A stretch of 64,000 nucleotides of DNA, from the sequence record OP870146.1. One strand, written 5' to 3'. The stretch comes from Escherichia phage vB_Eco_F27. A program made the translations under genes and the position numbers. Under the pieces are notes generated by a model, which saw only the letters and a list, made by a program, of their open reading frames with translations, did no database searches and was not told where the DNA came from. Below, one piece after another: positions 6,858-50,325 of the stretch (position 1 is its first letter; every line of letters begins with the position of its first letter).

Positions 6858-6929
6858 TACTATATCGTTTAAAAATTAATTCTATGGGCATCCGGTTAAT
6901 CCTAAGCCCATATTACTACAGAGGCTAAT

Positions 6930-7421
6930 ATGTTTGTAGATGACGTAACTCGCGCCTTCGAATCTGGTGATTTCGCTCGCCCTAACCTGTTCGAAGTAGA
7001 AATCTCTTATCTTGGGCAAAACTTTAGCTTCCAGTGTCGTGCTACGGCTCTTCCTGCTGCGATCGTTGAAAAGGTTCCTGTTTCTTATATGAACCGTAAA
7101 ATTAACGTGGCCGGTGATCGTACATTCGATGATTGGACTATTACAGTAATGAACGATGATGCTCATAGCATTCGTCAGAAATTTGTTGATTGGCAAGGTA
7201 TTGCAGCAGGACAAGGTAATGAAATTACCGGTGGTAAACCTGCTGAATATAAAAAGTCTGCTATCGTTCGTCAATTTGCTCGTGATGCTAAAACGGTCAC
7301 TAAAGAAGTTGAAATTGTCGGCTTGTGGCCTACTAACGTTGGCGAAGTATCTCTTGATTGGGATTCGAATAACGAGATTGAAACGTTCGAAGTAACTCTT
7401 GCTCTTGATTGGTGGGAATAA
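6930..7421 (+). CDS. 19: Tail tube protein gp19
   Basis: 163 aa (T4 163 aa); late promoter upstream. Confidence 0.9.
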   Translation: MFVDDVTRAFESGDFARPNLFEVEISYLGQNFSFQCRATALPAAIVEKVPVSYMNRKINVAGDRTFDDWTITVMNDDAHSIRQKFVDWQGIAAGQGNEITGGKPAEYKKSAIVRQFARDAKTVTKEVEIVGLWPTNVGEVSLDWDSNNEIETFEVTLALDWWE

Positions 7422-7469
7422 TCTGGTTGGGGAGAAATCCCCAGCTTCCCGTGATGACGGAGAAGTCCA

Positions 7470-7477
7470 TATAAATA
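7470..7477 (+). promoter_or_regulatory. Late promoter (TATAAATA) for gene 20
   Basis: Exact TATAAATA 29 nt upstream of the gene 20 ATG. Confidence 0.7.
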
Positions 7478-7505
7478 TAACTATAATTCCCATTCGGAGA
7501 ATACA

Positions 7506-13234: not shown

Positions 13235-14518
13235 ATGAGTAAAATCCAAAAATTATTGCGTGAATCTACAACGTCTACTAGCAACTCAATCGGTCGCCCA
13301 AATCTCGTTGCTTTGACTCGCGCTACGACTAAATTAATATATTCTGACATTGTAGCAACACAAAGAACTAATCAACCTGTTGCTGCTTTTTATGGTATCA
13401 AATATCTTAACCCAGACAACGAATTAACATTTAAAACTGGTGCTACTTATGCAGGCGAAGCTGGATATGTAGACCGAGAAAAAATTACCGAACTCACAGA
13501 AGAATCAAAAGTCACATTAAATAAAGGCGATTTTTTCAAATATAATAATATCGTCTATAAAGTGTTAGAAGATGCACCATTTGCAGATATTCAAGAAAGT
13601 GATCTAGAATTAGCTCTTCAGATTGCGGTCGTTCATTTAAAGGTACGGTTATTTTCGGATGCAGCGGTAACAAGCAAATTTGAAAGCTCTGGTAGCGAAA
13701 TTTCTGATGCAAGATTCCAGATTAATAAATGGCAAACTTCAGTCAAATCTCGTAAACTTAAAACCGGCCTCACGGTTGAATTAGCGCAAGATTTGGAAGC
13801 AAATGGATTTGATGCCCCTAACTTCTTAGAAGATTTGCTTGCTACTGAAATGGCTGATGAAATTAATAAAGATATTCTTCAGTCTTTAATTACTGTATCG
13901 AAACGTTATAAAGTTACTGGAATTACTGACACTGGATTTATTGACTTGAGCTATGCGTCTGCTCCAGAAGCAGGCCGTTCGTTATACCGAATGGTATGTG
14001 AAATGGTTTCGCATATCCAAAAAGAGTCAACTTATACTGCAACGTTTTGCGTAGCTTCAGCTCGTGCAGCTGCTATTCTTGCTGCTTCTGGTTGGTTAAA
14101 ACATAAGCCAGAAGATGACAAGTATCTTTCACAAAATGCTTATGGATTCTTGGCAAATGGATTACCTCTTTACTGCGATACCAACAGTCCGTTAGATTAT
14201 GTTATTGTGGGTGTTGTAGAAAATATCGGTGAAAAAGAAATTGTAGGGTCCATCTTTTATGCTCCATACACTGAAGGAGTAGATTTAGATGACCCGGAAC
14301 ATGTTGGTGCTTTTAAAGTTGTAGTTGATCCAGAAAGCTTGCAACCGTCTATCGGATTATTGGTTAGATATGCTTTATCAGCAAATCCTTACACAGTAGC
14401 AAAAGACGAAAAAGAAGCGAGAATAATTGATGGCGGGGACATGGATAAAATGGCAGGACGTTCAGACTTGTCTGTTTTACTCGGTGTTAAATTGCCTAAA
14501 ATTATTATAGATGAATAA
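13235..14518 (+). CDS. 24: Capsid vertex protein gp24
   Basis: 427 aa (T4 427 aa); late promoter TATAAATA at 13200-13207. Confidence 0.9.
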   Translation: MSKIQKLLRESTTSTSNSIGRPNLVALTRATTKLIYSDIVATQRTNQPVAAFYGIKYLNPDNELTFKTGATYAGEAGYVDREKITELTEESKVTLNKGDFFKYNNIVYKVLEDAPFADIQESDLELALQIAVVHLKVRLFSDAAVTSKFESSGSEISDARFQINKWQTSVKSRKLKTGLTVELAQDLEANGFDAPNFLEDLLATEMADEINKDILQSLITVSKRYKVTGITDTGFIDLSYASAPEAGRSLYRMVCEMVSHIQKESTYTATFCVASARAAAILAASGWLKHKPEDDKYLSQNAYGFLANGLPLYCDTNSPLDYVIVGVVENIGEKEIVGSIFYAPYTEGVDLDDPEHVGAFKVVVDPESLQPSIGLLVRYALSANPYTVAKDEKEARIIDGGDMDKMAGRSDLSVLLGVKLPKIIIDE

Positions 14519-14526
14519 ACGAAAAA

Positions 14527-14552
14527 GGGACCGTAAGGTCCCTTTTTTTTTG
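14527..14552. terminator. Bidirectional terminator between convergent genes 24 and rnlB
   Basis: GGGACCGTAAGGTCCC followed by T9 on the plus strand; T-rich on the minus side too. Confidence 0.8.
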
Positions 14553-15551
14553 TTATGATACTAATTCAATCCATGCAGGACGCAGAACATCTTGCACCAT
14601 TCGGACTAATTCTTTCTTAACAAGATTCGGATTATCGGATGATGTTAATACAATACCTTCACGAGAAGTTTCTTCCAGAATATCTTGAACAGTCAATCCC
14701 ATCACTTTGCCAAAATCTTTTGGCGTTACAGTCCCAATCTTAGAAATCACATTATTAACACGATTTAATGTAACATAACAAGCTAGAACATCAAGCAAGT
14801 TTTTGTCAATTTCGGTTAATGGAAGCTGAGTTTTAATAGGCTTATCAGACTTTTTCTTTTCACTGAATTTAGAGTTCTTGCACTTAATAGCTACACGAGT
14901 ACCGTTTGGCAGCCATTTAGGGAAACAAGGCTTCAGAACATAACCTTCTGCTGTATTATCGCCAATAACATTAGCATCAAATACACAATTATTTGCTTCT
15001 ACAAGGTCTTCTGACGCAGTAGCATTATAAGCGGCTAAAACGGAATCAAGGTCATTTGGAATCGCGATAAGAGCATCGAATGTTCCACGTCCGAGCATTG
15101 GTGCCATTTTAAAACCGAATTCATTACAGAAATCTTGCATTTCGTAATCGGTCAAATACGTATTATCACCACTTTCTGTATTGATAAGGATATCGAACAC
15201 ATAAAAATCTTTTTCACCATAGTCAACACCTTTCTGTATTCCACCACCAGCGAATTCACCGAATACTTGATATGATACGGCTCGAGCTGTGTACATGAAT
15301 TCCTGAACGGCTTTAATAGCTTTATCATACTTCTTAAGTACGATTTCATAACCATAAAAATCTTCTGCTGGAAGAATAGGGCCTGTGCGCTTGGCGCATG
15401 TGACGTTGTCACGTTCAATTATTAACGAGAAGTTGGTCCCGTGGATTTTCTCACGTGCTACCCAAACACCAGTAGTCAAACCATTAGTGTAGAGTTTTTC
15501 AATAAACTTGTTGTTGTAGTGGTTTTCAAGACTGCTGTATTTCTTAAACAT
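14553..15551 (-). CDS. rnlB: RNA ligase 2 (Rnl2)
   Basis: 332 aa; nucleotidyltransferase lysine motif KIHGTN near the N-terminus; position next to gene 24 as in T4. Confidence 0.9.
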
Positions 15552-44615: not shown

Positions 44616-45794
44616 TTAGAAATATTTTTTGTATGAATTGATTACATTTTGGTCTACATCATTATCAATTTGTGCGACAAGATAAGAGCTGATTTCAACT
44701 TCCTGAGGAGCTGCTTGAACTAAATCGGAGTTCAGATATTCACGAATCCAAGGATACGGATGCTTGGTCGGAGCATCAGTGATTGGGCATGGCAAACCAC
44801 ACTGTTTCATACGAGACACAGTCAAGTAATCAACAAAAGCACACATACTCTGTGTATTGATACCTGGGCATGTACCGTCTTTAAAGAGGTGTGCAGCCCA
44901 TTCCTTCTCTTGACTATTTACTTCCATAAAAATGTCAACTGCTTCTTGTTCACATTCTTTAGCAATTTGAACCCACTCATCGCCATCAGTACCAGATTGA
45001 AGTTGACGGATAATGTACTGAGTACCCTTGAGGTGGAGTTGTTCGTCACGAGCAATGAACTTCATAATCTTTGCATTACCTTCCATAATTTCCATATTTT
45101 TATGGAAGTTGAAAGTACATGCAAATGATACGTAAAAACGAATAGCTTCTAAGGCGTTGATAACATGCAAACAGAGGTAAAGAGATTTCATTAGCTCACG
45201 CTTCCAATATGTCTCATGCTCAATAGCATCTTCAATAACGTCTTCGTCTGCATTAATTTCTTTTTGGTATTCGATATCAGCTTTGGCATTTTCCCAATAA
45301 CGAGCTTTAACCAGAACATCATCATAATATCGTCCGATAGATTCGGCACGCTTCATAATAGCTTCATCTAATACAATCTCATCAAACACCTTCGATGGAT
45401 CTGTATAAAGATTTCGCATAATATGAGTATATGAACGAGAGTGAATAGTTTCACTGAAAGTCCATGTAGCAACCCATGTATCTAATGAAGGGTCTGAAAG
45501 CAATGACATAAGTACCGCAGATGGTGCTCTACCTTGGATAGAATCTAATAATGATTGATACTTAAGGTTGTTGGTAAAGATGTCCTGTTGGAACTGTGGA
45601 AGCTTATTAAACTGGGCCGAATCCAACATCAAGTTTACTTCCTCGGGACGCCAAAAGAACGAGAGCTGCTTTTCGATAAGCTCTTCAAAAACTTTATGAC
45701 GCTGAATATCATAACGTGCGAGGCCAAGACCAGAACCAAAGAACATCGGTTCATTCAAAACATCGACTTGTTGTGTGTTAAAAACTGTACTCAT
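44616..45794 (-). CDS. nrdB: Ribonucleotide reductase small subunit (class Ia)
   Basis: 392 aa, uninterrupted reading frame (no intron); position downstream of nrdA. Confidence 0.9.
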   Translation of the reverse strand: MSTVFNTQQVDVLNEPMFFGSGLGLARYDIQRHKVFEELIEKQLSFFWRPEEVNLMLDSAQFNKLPQFQQDIFTNNLKYQSLLDSIQGRAPSAVLMSLLSDPSLDTWVATWTFSETIHSRSYTHIMRNLYTDPSKVFDEIVLDEAIMKRAESIGRYYDDVLVKARYWENAKADIEYQKEINADEDVIEDAIEHETYWKRELMKSLYLCLHVINALEAIRFYVSFACTFNFHKNMEIMEGNAKIMKFIARDEQLHLKGTQYIIRQLQSGTDGDEWVQIAKECEQEAVDIFMEVNSQEKEWAAHLFKDGTCPGINTQSMCAFVDYLTVSRMKQCGLPCPITDAPTKHPYPWIREYLNSDLVQAAPQEVEISSYLVAQIDNDVDQNVINSYKKYF

Positions 45795-45849: not shown

Positions 45850-48105
45850 TTAAAGCTTACAAGCAGAACAATCTTCAGCTTTAGGTGTTTCTAATTCATA
45901 GTCATCTGTACCTGACCCATCACGAGTGTTATGATAGTAGAGGTTTTTTCCGCCAAAGTACCAGAAGTAAAGCAGATCGTCAAGCATTACTGACATTGGC
46001 ACTTTACCTTTCTCAAATACTGCAGGGTCATAGTAAGTATTAGCAGAAGCAGATTGGCACACCCATTTCAACATGATAGCAACTTGGGTCAAATAAGGTT
46101 TATTACCTTTCTTAGCAAGTTTCCACGCATAGTCGTAAAGACTCATGTTATGTTCGATATTAGGAACAACCTGACGGAAGTTGCCTTCTTTAGATTCTTT
46201 AATACTTACTGGACCGCGTGGGGGCTCAATCCCGTTTGTAGAGTTTGATACTTGACTGCTTGACTCACAAGGCATAAGTGCAGACAACGTTGAGTTACGA
46301 ATTCCATGTTCTTTGAGTTCAGCTCGAAGTTCTTCCCAGTCACAGACGTAGTTCGGGGCTGCGATTTGGTCAATCTTTTTATTGTACCAGTCGATAGGTA
46401 ATTCGCCTCTAGACCATTTAGTGTCTGAATAATACTCGCAATATCCTTTTTCTTTGGCGAGTTTGATTGAAGCTTTGATAAGGCCATATTGCAATCTCTC
46501 AAACAATTCATGAGTCAAATCGTTAGCGTCTTCGTATGAAGCAAAGTTAGAAGCTAACCATGCAGCATAGTTCGTAACACCAACACCAAGATTACGACGC
46601 TTTTTAGCTTTTAAAGCTTCTGGAACCGGATAATCTTGATAGTCTAACAGGTTATCAAGTGCACGTACTTGTACTTCAGCAAGTTCATTAATTTTATCTT
46701 GGTCTTGCCAATCAAATTTATCTAATACAAAAGCAGATAATGTGCATAAACCAATTTCAGCATCAGGACCATTCACATCATTAGTTGGAATAGCGATTTC
46801 ACAACATAAGTTACTCTGACGAATTGGAGCTTTTTCACGAATAAATGGAGTGTAGTTATTCGTGTTATCAACAAACTGTGGATAAATTCGAGCAGTGCCA
46901 GAACGTTCAGTCATGAACAATTCAAAGAGTTCTAGTGCTTTGATTCTTTTCTTTCTGATTGTTGGGTCTTTTTCAGCTTTCTCATAAAGCTCACGGAATT
47001 TATCTTGATCTTCAAAGAACGAGTAGTATAGTTCGCCTGACATTTCATGAGGGCTAAATAAAGTAATATAATCATTTTTACCAAGGCGTTCCATCATAAG
47101 GTCATTAATCTGAATTCCGTAGTCCATATGTCGAATACGGTTTTCATCCACGCCTTTGTTATTTTTCAGAACTAATAGGTTCTCTACTTCTAAGTGCCAC
47201 ATCGGATAATACGCTGTAGCAGCACCACCACGAATACCACCTTGAGAACAAGATTTTACTGCAGTTTGGAAATGTTTCCAGAATGGAATAACACCCGTAT
47301 GTCGAACTTCACCCATACCGATCTTAGAACCTTCTGCACGAAGCATACCAACGTTGATACCAATACCAGCCCGTTTAGAAATATATTCAATAATTGATGC
47401 TGAAGTTTTGTTAATAGATTTTAACGAATCACCGGCTTCAATAACTACACAACTAGAGAACTGGCGAGTTGGAGTACGAGCACCTGCCATAATTGGGGTT
47501 GGCAATGAAACTTGATGAGTAGAAACGGCATCATAAAAACGAATAATATGTTTCAAACGGTCATGAGTTTCGTCTTGATGTAAGGCCATACCAATAGCCA
47601 TGATAGCAAACTGTGGAGTTTCATAAATCTTCCCAGTTGTTTTATCTTTAACTAGATATTTTTCTTTAAGCTGCATAGCACCAGCATAAGTCAGGTCAAA
47701 GTCTCGTTCATGTTTAATCTGTGAATCGAGATAAATGATTTCTTCTGCTGAATATTGAGACAACAGCTCAGGGTCATATTTGCCTTCATTAACACAATAA
47801 GAAATATGGTCGATAAAAGCAGGCGGTTCAAACTGCCCATATACATCTTTACGAAGTGCAAACATTAGCCCTTTGGCGGCGACATACTGATAATCAGGTT
47901 CTTCGACAGAAATCGAGTTAGCTGCAACTTTAATACAAATCTTCTGAATATCTTTGGTGCTCATCCCATCGACAAGATGAGTCTTAATTTCTTCGTACAA
48001 TTCATATGGGTCAATTTGTGTTCCTTCACATTGCCAAGTTAAGACTTGAATAATTTTCTGTGCATCAAAATTTTGGGATACACCACTGCTCTTAGTTACT
48101 TGCAT
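45850..48105 (-). CDS. nrdA: Ribonucleotide reductase large subunit (class Ia)
   Basis: 751 aa; C-terminal CSACKL redox tail; structured leader with extended -10. Confidence 0.92.
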   Translation of the reverse strand: MQVTKSSGVSQNFDAQKIIQVLTWQCEGTQIDPYELYEEIKTHLVDGMSTKDIQKICIKVAANSISVEEPDYQYVAAKGLMFALRKDVYGQFEPPAFIDHISYCVNEGKYDPELLSQYSAEEIIYLDSQIKHERDFDLTYAGAMQLKEKYLVKDKTTGKIYETPQFAIMAIGMALHQDETHDRLKHIIRFYDAVSTHQVSLPTPIMAGARTPTRQFSSCVVIEAGDSLKSINKTSASIIEYISKRAGIGINVGMLRAEGSKIGMGEVRHTGVIPFWKHFQTAVKSCSQGGIRGGAATAYYPMWHLEVENLLVLKNNKGVDENRIRHMDYGIQINDLMMERLGKNDYITLFSPHEMSGELYYSFFEDQDKFRELYEKAEKDPTIRKKRIKALELFELFMTERSGTARIYPQFVDNTNNYTPFIREKAPIRQSNLCCEIAIPTNDVNGPDAEIGLCTLSAFVLDKFDWQDQDKINELAEVQVRALDNLLDYQDYPVPEALKAKKRRNLGVGVTNYAAWLASNFASYEDANDLTHELFERLQYGLIKASIKLAKEKGYCEYYSDTKWSRGELPIDWYNKKIDQIAAPNYVCDWEELRAELKEHGIRNSTLSALMPCESSSQVSNSTNGIEPPRGPVSIKESKEGNFRQVVPNIEHNMSLYDYAWKLAKKGNKPYLTQVAIMLKWVCQSASANTYYDPAVFEKGKVPMSVMLDDLLYFWYFGGKNLYYHNTRDGSGTDDYELETPKAEDCSACKL

Positions 48106-48192: not shown

Positions 48193-48447
48193 TTAATTAT
48201 CCTCAGCAATAATTTCTTCATATTCTTTAGGTGTCAAGACTGTGATATTGAAATAAACCAACGGTTCTTTTTCTATACCGAATCCACCACAGAATTCACG
48301 ATATTCATAAATTCGTTCATGTGAATAACAAATGAATCGTTCACCTTTAACTGTGATTTCACTATTCGGTGAAGGGATATCTAGTTCGGTAGGATTTTTC
48401 ATTTCAAAAATTGTGGTGCCATATGAATTAATAAAACGTAAAATCAT
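48193..48447 (-). CDS. Hypothetical protein (T4 nrdA.1 position)
   Basis: 84-aa ORF between td exon 2 and nrdA. Confidence 0.45.
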   Translation of the reverse strand: MILRFINSYGTTIFEMKNPTELDIPSPNSEITVKGERFICYSHERIYEYREFCGGFGIEKEPLVYFNITVLTPKEYEEIIAEDN

Positions 48448-48448
48448 T

Positions 48449-48760
48449 TTATACCGCCATTTTAGCTTTGATAGCTGGATGTGATTCGTAATTTTTAAGA
48501 ACGAAATCAGAATGTGTCATCGTTCCAGTAACCCAGTCCATTTGGATTTTTGTAGGCCAATTCTCAAAATTACTAGGCCAATTAATTTCAAGAGAACATA
48601 ACTCTTTAGGTTCACGACGAAGAACTTCTTTGCATTGTTCTACATGATTGCTGTAGATATGCGTGTTGCCGCCTGAGAACACTAAATCACCTGGGATAAG
48701 GTTACACATCTTCGCTACAATATGCGTCAAGGCAGCGTACGAGGCAATGTTGAACGGCAG
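48449..48760 (-). CDS. td: Thymidylate synthase, exon 2 (codons 184-286 plus stop)
   Basis: Encodes LPFNIASYAALTHIVAKMCNLIPGDL...KMAV, the C-terminal part of thymidylate synthase; the apparent ATG at 48761-48763 belongs to the intron 3' end. Confidence 0.9.
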   Translation of the reverse strand: MPFNIASYAALTHIVAKMCNLIPGDLVFSGGNTHIYSNHVEQCKEVLRREPKELCSLEINWPSNFENWPTKIQMDWVTGTMTHSDFVLKNYESHPAIKAKMAV

Positions 48761-49776
48761 CATTATGTTCAGATAAGGTCGTTAATCTTATCCCGGAATT
48801 ATATCCAGCTGCATGTCACCATGCAGAGCAGACTATATCTCCAACTTGTTAAAGCAAGTTGTCTATCGTTTCGAGTCACTTGACCCTACTCCCTAAAGGG
48901 ATAGTCGTTAGGCATTTATGTAGAACCAATTCCACTTATCAGATTTTACACGGTAAGTAACTAATCCTGATGAAATTTCAAAATGTCTAGCCGCATCGGC
49001 TGCACATTCAAAAATAATCCCATCGCATGAAATCTTTTTGATGTTAGCTGGCTTTTTGCCTTTCATCTTTTCAGATAGTTTAGTTTTAGTTTTTTCTGAA
49101 TGTTTGTGATTAAAGAACGGGTTATTTTCACCTGAACGTTTTCGGCACTTTCCACAAGTATCGGCCGAAGATGGTATGCGAACACCGCATTTACAAAACT
49201 TGTGGTTTTCTGGATTCCATCGGCCATTTTTACTTCCGTGTTTACCATAAAGAGCTTTCCGACCATCAGGACCAAGCTTAAGCATCTTAGCTTTAACAGT
49301 TTCAGCTCGTTTCTTAGCAATTTCTTCTTTTAATGGATGATTTGAAAGCACATCGCCAAAAGACGCATCAGCAATATTATATCCATTAATTTTAGAATTT
49401 AGCTCTTTAATCCAAAAATTTTCTCGTTCAATAATCAAATCTTTCTCATATGGAATTTCTTCCAGTACAGAGCATTCAAAAACATTACCATGTTTATTAA
49501 AAGACCTTTGAAATTTTATAGAAGAGTGAACACCGTTTTCAAGGTCTTTAAAATGCCTCTTCCATCTTTTCTCAAAATCTTTAGCACTTCCAACATACAC
49601 TTTACCGTTTAAAGTGTTTTTAATCTGATAAATTCCGCTTTTCATAAACACCTCTTTTTATATAGAAGTATTTATTAAAGGGTAGTCCTACAATTTAGCA
49701 CGGGATTGTCTACTAGAGAGGTCCCCCGTTTAGATAGATTACAAGTATAAGTCACCTTATACCTAGGCCTAAATTA
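48761..49776 (-). mobile_element. Group I self-splicing intron in td (1016 nt) carrying the I-TevI homing endonuclease gene
   Basis: 5' end reads UAAUUUAGGCCUAGGUAUAAGGUGACUUAUACUUGUAAUCUAUCUAAACGGGG..., 3' end ...AUAAGAUUAACGACCUUAUCUGAACAUAAUG; matches the T4 td intron as recalled; exon 1 ends GGU and exon 2 resumes in frame. Confidence 0.88.
48908..49645 (-). CDS. I-TevI GIY-YIG homing endonuclease (intron ORF)
   Basis: 245 aa from MKSGIYQIKNTLNGKVYVGSAKDFEKRWKRH; GIY-YIG motif and C-terminal DNA-binding region very close to T4 I-TevI as recalled. Confidence 0.9.
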   Translation of the reverse strand: MKSGIYQIKNTLNGKVYVGSAKDFEKRWKRHFKDLENGVHSSIKFQRSFNKHGNVFECSVLEEIPYEKDLIIERENFWIKELNSKINGYNIADASFGDVLSNHPLKEEIAKKRAETVKAKMLKLGPDGRKALYGKHGSKNGRWNPENHKFCKCGVRIPSSADTCGKCRKRSGENNPFFNHKHSEKTKTKLSEKMKGKKPANIKKISCDGIIFECAADAARHFEISSGLVTYRVKSDKWNWFYINA

Positions 49777-50325
49777 ACCTAAGAAAACATCGACACTGCG
49801 TTGGTACCATTGTAAATCAAGATGTCCATTACGCACATTGAACTGATAGAACATATGGCAAGGAGGAAGAGCCATTTGGTCAATTTCGGCCGGGTTCCAT
49901 GCAGAAACTATTTGACGTCGATCATTAGGAAGAGCTTTAATACGGTCGATAGTTTTGACCAATTGGTCCACACCACCGAAATCACGCCATTGCTTACCAT
50001 AAATAGGACCAAGTTCGCCGCTATGATATCCAAGGTCTTTTGCCTGATTTTCATAGTTGTCGTCCCAAATAGTTTTACCTTGAATAAGACTACCATGAGT
50101 ACGAATACGCAAATCATTAACATTGGTAGAACCAGACATGAACCACAGTAACTCGGCAATACAAGCTTTCCATGCTAATTTCTTAGTTGTTACTGCAGGA
50201 AATCCTTTAGTAAGGTCCCATCGCAATTTAGTTCCGAATAGAGCAATTGTTCCGGTACCTGTACGGTCGTCTGTTTCATAGCCATTTTCTAAGATATCTT
50301 TAATCAAATCTTGATATTGTTTCAT
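49777..50325 (-). CDS. td: Thymidylate synthase, exon 1 (codons 1-183)
   Basis: MKQYQDLIKDILENGYE...active-site region ALPPCH...QRSVDVFLG; in-frame stop immediately follows inside the intron. Confidence 0.9.

Follow-up and report, generated by a model that had tools for sequence, protein, structure and literature searches.

The gene for thymidylate synthase (td) in Escherichia phage vB_Eco_F27 is split by a group I intron of the IA type that carries the gene for the homing endonuclease I-TevI. The element was analysed in a window of 64,000 nucleotides (sequence record OP870146.1), where it occupies positions 48761..49776 on the minus strand, 1016 nt in all. It is almost certainly the T-even td intron with its I-TevI gene, residing in the td gene of an RB69-like (Mosigvirus-type) phage and sharing the splicing and homing scheme of that family. 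Mobile introns of bacterial viruses have their founding example in the td intron with I-TevI. The anatomy of the element, its reading frames and protein domains, its covarying base pairs, its identity to a deposited intron and the empty sites in its relatives are observations, while splicing, cleavage, homing and regulation of the F27 copy are expected from the work on T4. The intron is 100.0% identical over its 1016 nt, I-TevI reading frame included, to the td intron of phage TuIa (AY262157.1), so its presence here is not due to chance. Its identity to the td intron of Mosigvirus G2469 is 99.7% and to that of T4 90.2%.

Exon 1 lies at 49777..50325 on the minus strand, as do all features of the locus described below, and comprises 549 nt or 183 codons. 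It ends in ...CAACGCAGTGTCGATGTTTTCTTAGGT (…QRSVDVFLG), directly followed by an in-frame TAA at 49776..49774 with which the intron starts, and the open reading frame containing the exon runs over 49774..50325, with the C-terminus ...YQRSVDVFLG before that TAA. The last six nucleotides of the exon, TTAGGT (49782..49777), form the 5' strand of P1, and the last T among them contributes the U of the splice-site U.G pair. Exon 2 (48449..48760; 312 nt with the stop, or 103 codons plus stop) begins with CTGCCGTTCAAC (LPFN; in shorter form CTGCCGTTC, LPF...), in frame with exon 1. The predicted spliced junction joins 49777 to 48760 and would read ...GTTTTCTTAGGT followed by CTGCCGTTCAAC, or, more briefly, ...TTCTTAGGT followed by CTGCCGTTC.

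When the two exons are joined, they translate without interruption into 286 amino acids plus a stop. The product matches the thymidylate synthase profile PF00303 at 328.8 bits over profile positions 1-266 of 266, contains the sequence ALPPCHMFYQF with the catalytic cysteine in its PPCH motif, and is collinear and gap-free with the uninterrupted td of phages RB69 and JK42. A preliminary description, made from the sequence alone, had proposed a td gene split by a 1016-nt intron at these coordinates, an exon 1 ending in ...SVDVFLG before an in-frame stop, and an exon 2 that resumes in frame to give a 286-aa thymidylate synthase, and all of these positions, lengths and frames proved correct. Its further statement that both intron ends match those of T4 held for the 3' end, ...AACATAATG (short form CATAATG, with the terminal G at 48761), which is identical. 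It did not hold for the 5' end, TAATTTAGGCC (short form TAATTTAGG), where three of the first 15 nucleotides differ, in the internal guide sequence. The alignment to the T4 td intron that it had suggested as a check places both introns at the same insertion site.

Mechanical calling of reading frames gives exon 2 as an ORF at 48449..48763, starting at an ATG. This ATG was rejected as a separate start for exon 2, since it is formed by the terminal bases of the intron. The same ATG could be taken to mean that no RNA splicing occurs and that td is either disrupted by a homing-endonuclease gene or expressed as two separate polypeptides, and many GenBank records do annotate two thymidylate synthase coding sequences in line with this, with entries such as “thymidylate synthase (x2)” or the remark “unable to determine exon/intron boundaries”. 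However, the ATG at 48763 consists of nothing other than the last three nucleotides of the intron, the break falls inside the conserved motif FLG/LPFNIASYA, and 278 non-coding nucleotides make up a full group I core with covariation and similarity to the Rfam model RF00028. The homologous T4 element, moreover, is the classic self-splicing td intron (PMC2988022). An unspliced td is thus exceedingly improbable.

The 278 nt that flank the I-TevI reading frame form the complete group I core, divided into two segments. The 5' ribozyme segment (49686..49768) extends from the internal guide sequence GCCTAG (49768..49763) through the P2 hairpin (49762..49745), the 5' strand of P3 (49738..49733) and P4-P5-P4' (49729..49700) to the 5' strands of P6 and P6a (49699..49686). 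The 3' segment (48761..48925) runs from the 3' strands of P6a and P6 to the terminal ...AACATAATG and contains the 5' strand of P7 (48906..48901), the 3' strand of P3 (48867..48862), P8 (48861..48842), J8/7 with the 3' strand of P7 (48841..48831), P9 (48826..48809) and P9.2 (48792..48772), in addition to P7.1, P7.2 and P9.1. The 3' strands of P6a and P6 (48925..48912) are supplied by the terminal codons of I-TevI (WFYINA and the stop), and in T4 the 3' end of the I-TevI reading frame likewise builds P6a/P6 (PMC2988022). P1 consists of six base pairs between UUAGGU of the exon and the guide GCCUAG.

The pairings were examined in a structure alignment of 11 td introns, those of the window, T4, a Proteus phage, a Klebsiella phage, G28, HP3.2, CE1, SEA1 and three IMG/VR contigs, each reduced to the ORF-deleted core plus 10 nt from exon 1 and 8 nt from exon 2. 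The td intron of Erwinia phage Joad (L022) was left out, as only its 3' core is common to the others and its 5' boundary is unalignable. Fourteen helices were drawn: P1, P2, P3, P4, P5, P6, P6a, P7 (which forms a pseudoknot with P3), P7.1, P7.2, P8, P9, P9.1 and P9.2. Across their 76 pairs, 98.6% of 829 cells are paired in the 11 introns, vs 30-43% after displacement of the 3' partners by 1-3 columns. Changes on both sides of a pair, that is, compensatory changes, occur at nine pairs, located in P6a, P7.2, P8 and P9.2, and the covariation observed in the 11 introns was reached by none of 500 shuffles. P2, P3, P4, P5, P6, P7, P7.1 and P9, among them the catalytic helices P3, P4, P6 and P7, are invariant in this set, where covariation speaks neither for nor against them. 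All 11 introns have the splice-site U.G pair, and the variable positions of P1 are still paired. The differences between the guide and that of T4 were considered as strict compensation, a reading that was rejected: they are one-sided shifts between wobble and Watson-Crick pairs that keep all six pairs.

Folding the ORF-deleted core to minimum energy gave -82.1 kcal/mol (z = -2.8), and none of 200 shuffles was as stable. Unaided, this fold recovers P1-P9.2 with the exception of the P7 pseudoknot. The assignment to group I in the preliminary description is thus borne out by helices P1-P9.2 with the P3/P7 pseudoknot and by compensatory changes, and the P1-P9 pairings, the disruption of which had been named as a ground for doubt, are intact.

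A search with the Rfam group I intron model had also been proposed as a check, and its outcome was mixed. At gathering thresholds, no Rfam family at all matches in the 64-kb window, RF00028 with its gathering score of 50 bits included. In a permissive search, the model matches 48809..49039 with 36.1 bits (E=2.9e-7 for the local region and 1.4e-5 for the whole window). The alignment is good at P7, P3', P8, J8/7 and P9, with AGAUAUAGUCU falling on the J8/7-P7 consensus, while the model's 5' half lands wrongly in the I-TevI reading frame. The score of the window falls below the gathering score because the model cannot bridge the ORF insertion of about 0.76 kb in L6a. The ORF-less td introns of CE1 and HP3.2 exceed the gathering score, with 73.8 and 70.3 bits, and their cores are identical to that of the window at 272 of 281 and 273 of 281 positions, respectively (about 97%). 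Taking the absence of a hit at the gathering threshold as evidence against an intron was rejected, given the E-value of the 36-bit match, the convincing P7-P9 region and the ORF-less relatives that pass. The score of the window itself nonetheless counts as a point against the assignment, the single check that failed.

In the 64-kb window, RF00028 matches nothing but the td intron, and a search of the same window for other introns or I-TevI-like genes found none. At the place of the T4 nrdA and nrdB genes, named here by position and size only, a 751-aa ORF (45850..48105, minus strand) in nrdA position is followed 55 nt downstream by an uninterrupted 392-aa ORF (44616..45794, minus strand) in nrdB position. 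Because the 392-aa ORF is uninterrupted and begins 55 nt from its neighbour, the phage has neither an nrdB intron nor mobE at this locus, both of which T4 carries there. The gap between td and nrdA holds a single small ORF of 84 aa (48193..48447, minus strand) in the position of nrdA.2, as in RB69, and T4 and JK42 additionally have nrdA.1 between td and nrdA. Two further signals in the window were noted. A weak match to MicX, a Vibrio small RNA, at 14445..14559 on the minus strand (28.9 bits and E=0.019, the gathering score being 75) is located where a structural-gene region ends and is most likely due to chance. A 203-aa ORF with an ATG start at 6882..7493 on the minus strand is fully antisense to a 163-aa ORF at 6930..7421 on the plus strand, which by position takes the place of the tail-tube gene 19, and the 203-aa ORF is probably a spurious antisense frame.

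In the proposed splicing scheme, the RNA of the td transcript would fold into the group I core, and P1 would arise from the pairing of UUAGGU at the end of exon 1 with the guide GCCUAG, the U.G pair lying at the splice site. Attack on the 5' splice site would come from an external guanosine that P7 binds; the terminal G of the intron would then enter the same P7 pocket, and the exons would be ligated to give the mRNA for the 286-aa enzyme.

The I-TevI gene occupies 48908..49645, with its ATG at 49645 and its stop at 48908, and encodes 245 amino acids. An alternative GTG start at 49651, which would give 247 amino acids, was rejected, as it lies within the Shine-Dalgarno sequence GAGGTG and the ATG at 49645 is the equivalent of the T4 start. 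The protein has the architecture of I-TevI, that is, a GIY-YIG nuclease, a linker with a Cys4 zinc finger, NUMOD3 and a helix-turn-helix DNA-binding domain. Four Pfam domains were matched: GIY-YIG (PF01541, residues 3-90, 61 bits), the I-TevI zinc finger (PF22635, residues 149-179, 63.4 bits), NUMOD3 (PF07460, residues 171-191, 24.7 bits) and the I-TevI DNA-binding domain (PF20987, residues 192-242, 108.2 bits). Residues 130-245 correspond to the structures 1i3j/1t2t and residues 1-97 to 1mk0 and 1ln0. These domains and structures confirm the 245-aa GIY-YIG homing endonuclease of the preliminary description. A scan of IMG/VR with I-TevI yielded three close loci (L003-L005), and the other seven, distant GIY-YIG proteins with 27-48% identity, were left out.

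The protein aligns to T4 I-TevI without gaps, with 217 of 245 residues identical (89%). Only five of the 28 substitutions fall in residues 1-92, which make up the nuclease, and the linker, zinc finger and DNA-binding region are more densely substituted. GIY at 4-6, YVG at 17-19, R27, E75 and N90 are all kept, as are the zinc-finger cysteines C151, C153, C164 and C167. The dN/dS ratio of I-TevI relative to T4 is 0.13, from which the protein appears to be under purifying selection.

The sites at which the T4 enzyme acts, and through which it is controlled, are also present. A CAACG motif (5'-CNNNG-3') at 49799..49803 lies in exon 1, at -27..-23 from the insertion site, within the Gln-Arg codons of the QRS motif, and is found at the same distance in T4 and in the intron-less alleles of RB69 and JK42. 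I-TevI follows a motif and distance rule, by which it recognizes CNNNG and cuts 23/25 nt upstream of the insertion site (PMC2988022, PMC5009752). Inside the intron, an operator-like site of 20 bp, TTGTAGGACTACCCTTTAAT (49674..49693), matches the phage’s own homing site at 13 of 20 positions, and no CNNNG was found at the equivalent cleavage distance from it. A late-promoter-like octamer, AATAAATA (49676..49669), overlaps the operator-like site. The Shine-Dalgarno sequence of I-TevI, AAGAGGTG (49656..49649), is sequestered in a predicted hairpin at 49643..49676, with a 12-bp stem and an energy of -12.8 kcal/mol, that is the counterpart of the T4 hairpin (-12.7 kcal/mol). The operator-like site, the octamer, the hairpin and the CAACG motif are thus all kept as described for T4, in which I-TevI represses itself at the operator and the delay of its translation protects splicing (PMC2988022).

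By analogy with T4, these sites would serve the same regulation and the same cleavage 23/25 nt upstream in the F27 copy. I-TevI, encoded in the P6a loop, would probably be made late, from the internal late promoter, and in longer early transcripts its ribosome-binding site would be locked in the hairpin. The enzyme would bind a stretch of about 20 bp with the insertion site of an intron-less td at its centre and cut at CAACG, 23/25 nt upstream; repair off an intron-bearing genome would then copy the intron together with a little flanking exon. I-TevI would probably also repress its own promoter through the operator-like site.

Empty sites are common among the relatives of this phage. Its nearest deposited genomes, compared over 24 kb, belong to RB69-like phages with about 95-97% identity. 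A search with a 500-nt query across the spliced junction gave matches that, among the 60 listed, were all unbroken and in a single piece, with 94.6-97.8% identity, including RB69, JK42, mar005P1, APCEc01 and MM02. RB69 and JK42, which were aligned directly, have a single td coding sequence of 861 nt that is gap-free at the junction. MM02 lacks the intron, yet over 24 kb it is as close to the window as the intron-bearing AV110 and a20.

The intron is also more uniform than the gene around it. In comparison with TuIa, there are no mismatches in the 1016 nt of the intron vs 10 in 501 nt of exons (Fisher p=1.5e-5), and in comparison with G2469 there are 3 in 1016 vs 25 in 861 (p=2.4e-6). The nucleotide identity to T4 is 78.3% in exon 1 and 68.6% in exon 2, and within the intron it amounts to 93.1% for the 5' core, 87.9% for the ORF and 98.6% for the 3' core. 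Because dS relative to T4 is 0.50 for I-TevI vs 1.8-1.95 for the td exons, the intron lineages appear to be much younger than their host td genes. This pattern fits horizontal spread of the intron with an endonuclease under selection; an inconsistent distribution and recent exchange of introns among T-even phages have long been described (references in PMC2988022).

A further trace may lie at the edge of exon 1. Within 12 nt of the insertion, Mosigvirus alleles with and without the intron differ only at -4 (A vs G) and -1 (T vs C), and exon 1 ends in TTCTTAGGT in the intron-bearing alleles and in TTCTTGGGC in the intron-less ones (RB69 and JK42), two alleles of each kind being compared. The T at -1 provides the U.G pair of the splice site. 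With two alleles on each side, the differences are consistent with a very short footprint of co-conversion of the exon edge during homing.

The preliminary description had moved from the intact endonuclease gene directly to an active mobile element, a step that overstated the case. Activity is instead suggested by several features taken together: the intact reading frame, the retention of R27, E75, N90 and the four zinc-finger cysteines, the dN/dS of 0.13, the CAACG motif, and the polymorphism of presence and absence. A ribozyme that splices within an immobile element, with an I-TevI that acts on Mosigvirus td poorly or not at all and an intron passed on vertically, would have a parallel in the nrdB intron of T4 with its defunct I-TevIII. 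It would also accord with the ORF-less and ORF-remnant td introns of other T-even phages, by which endonuclease loss does happen, and with the 28 residues that differ from T4 I-TevI, including C39V, T95S and Q158P, whose positions influence cleavage behaviour (PMC5009752). Against this stand the full-length reading frame with all catalytic and zinc-binding residues, the low dN/dS, an intron that is 99.7-100% identical between phages whose exons are 2-3% apart, its scattered presence among close relatives (AV110 and a20 with it, MM02 without), and the CAACG motif, which is kept with its spacing in intron-less alleles. An immobile intron is thus very unlikely, and a td intron that homes by means of I-TevI remains the preferred reading. 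Full activity of the enzyme on the Mosigvirus target is assumed in that reading, with 28 residues and several positions of the homing site differing from T4.

The same three substitutions may be viewed in another way. Where T4 I-TevI has C39, T95 and Q158, the protein of the window has V39, S95 and P158; substitutions at residues 39, 95 and 158 altered I-TevI's cleavage preference in directed evolution, and T95S is present in natural I-TevI homologs from related phages (PMC5009752). The homing sites of Mosigvirus-type td differ at several positions and have C, not T, at -1. Since the three changes fall at preference-changing positions, the TuIa-type I-TevI might be a natural enzyme with a broadened or shifted target preference, a speculative proposal that is more likely wrong than right by a wide measure. 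If it were true, the shifted preference could have let the intron cross from a Tequatrovirus-type to a Mosigvirus-type td.

As a discovery, the element carries little weight, and its practical value lies in annotation. Two “thymidylate synthase” ORFs become one spliced td coding sequence, and a “homing endonuclease” becomes an intron with the I-TevI gene; many deposited Mosigvirus genomes annotate two td coding sequences that are not joined. The element is also a further data point for the known horizontal spread of introns, with a near-invariant intron, flanks that are several percent apart and many close relatives without it.

The experimentally characterised prototype is the td intron of T4 with its I-TevI (NC_000866, M12742), which shares the gene, the insertion site and the helices. 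It also has the ORF in L6a, the late-promoter-like octamer, the hairpin over the ribosome-binding site, the operator-like site and CAACG at -27..-23. In T4, however, the guide is GCCUGA and pairs with the exon UUGGGU, whereas the window has GCCUAG with UUAGGU. The length of the T4 intron differs between records, with 1017 nt in NC_000866.4 (143547..144563) vs 1016 nt in M12742.1 (764..1779); the extra T of the RefSeq intron falls within the operator-like site, in loop L6a (GGACTTGCCC).

Further stages of the same element are found in other phages. The td introns of CE1 (262 nt; L020, 801..1062), SEA1 (250 nt; L021, 801..1050), HP3.2 (320 nt; L019, 801..1120) and G28 (445 nt; L018, 801..1245) have the same core and insertion site but have lost all or most of I-TevI, whereas the window keeps the full reading frame. 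They appear to represent different stages of endonuclease loss at one site. In SEA1, a short GAAA hairpin stands in place of P6a.

Much closer are the intron-bearing td genes of the Mosigvirus-type phages G2469, AV110, a20, NRG-P0074 and others, which are 98-98.6% identical over the 2-kb td region and show only point differences, concentrated in the exons. G2469 has the exon 1 end TTAGGT, as in the window. The closest of all is TuIa (AY262157.1), for which variants of the I-TevI hairpin appear in a figure of PMC2988022. The insertion site and all 1016 nt are the same, while 10 of 501 positions in the exons on either side are different, and the window is thus not the TuIa record itself. Through this public deposit the element was already known to the nucleotide, and its identification here is correct but ordinary.
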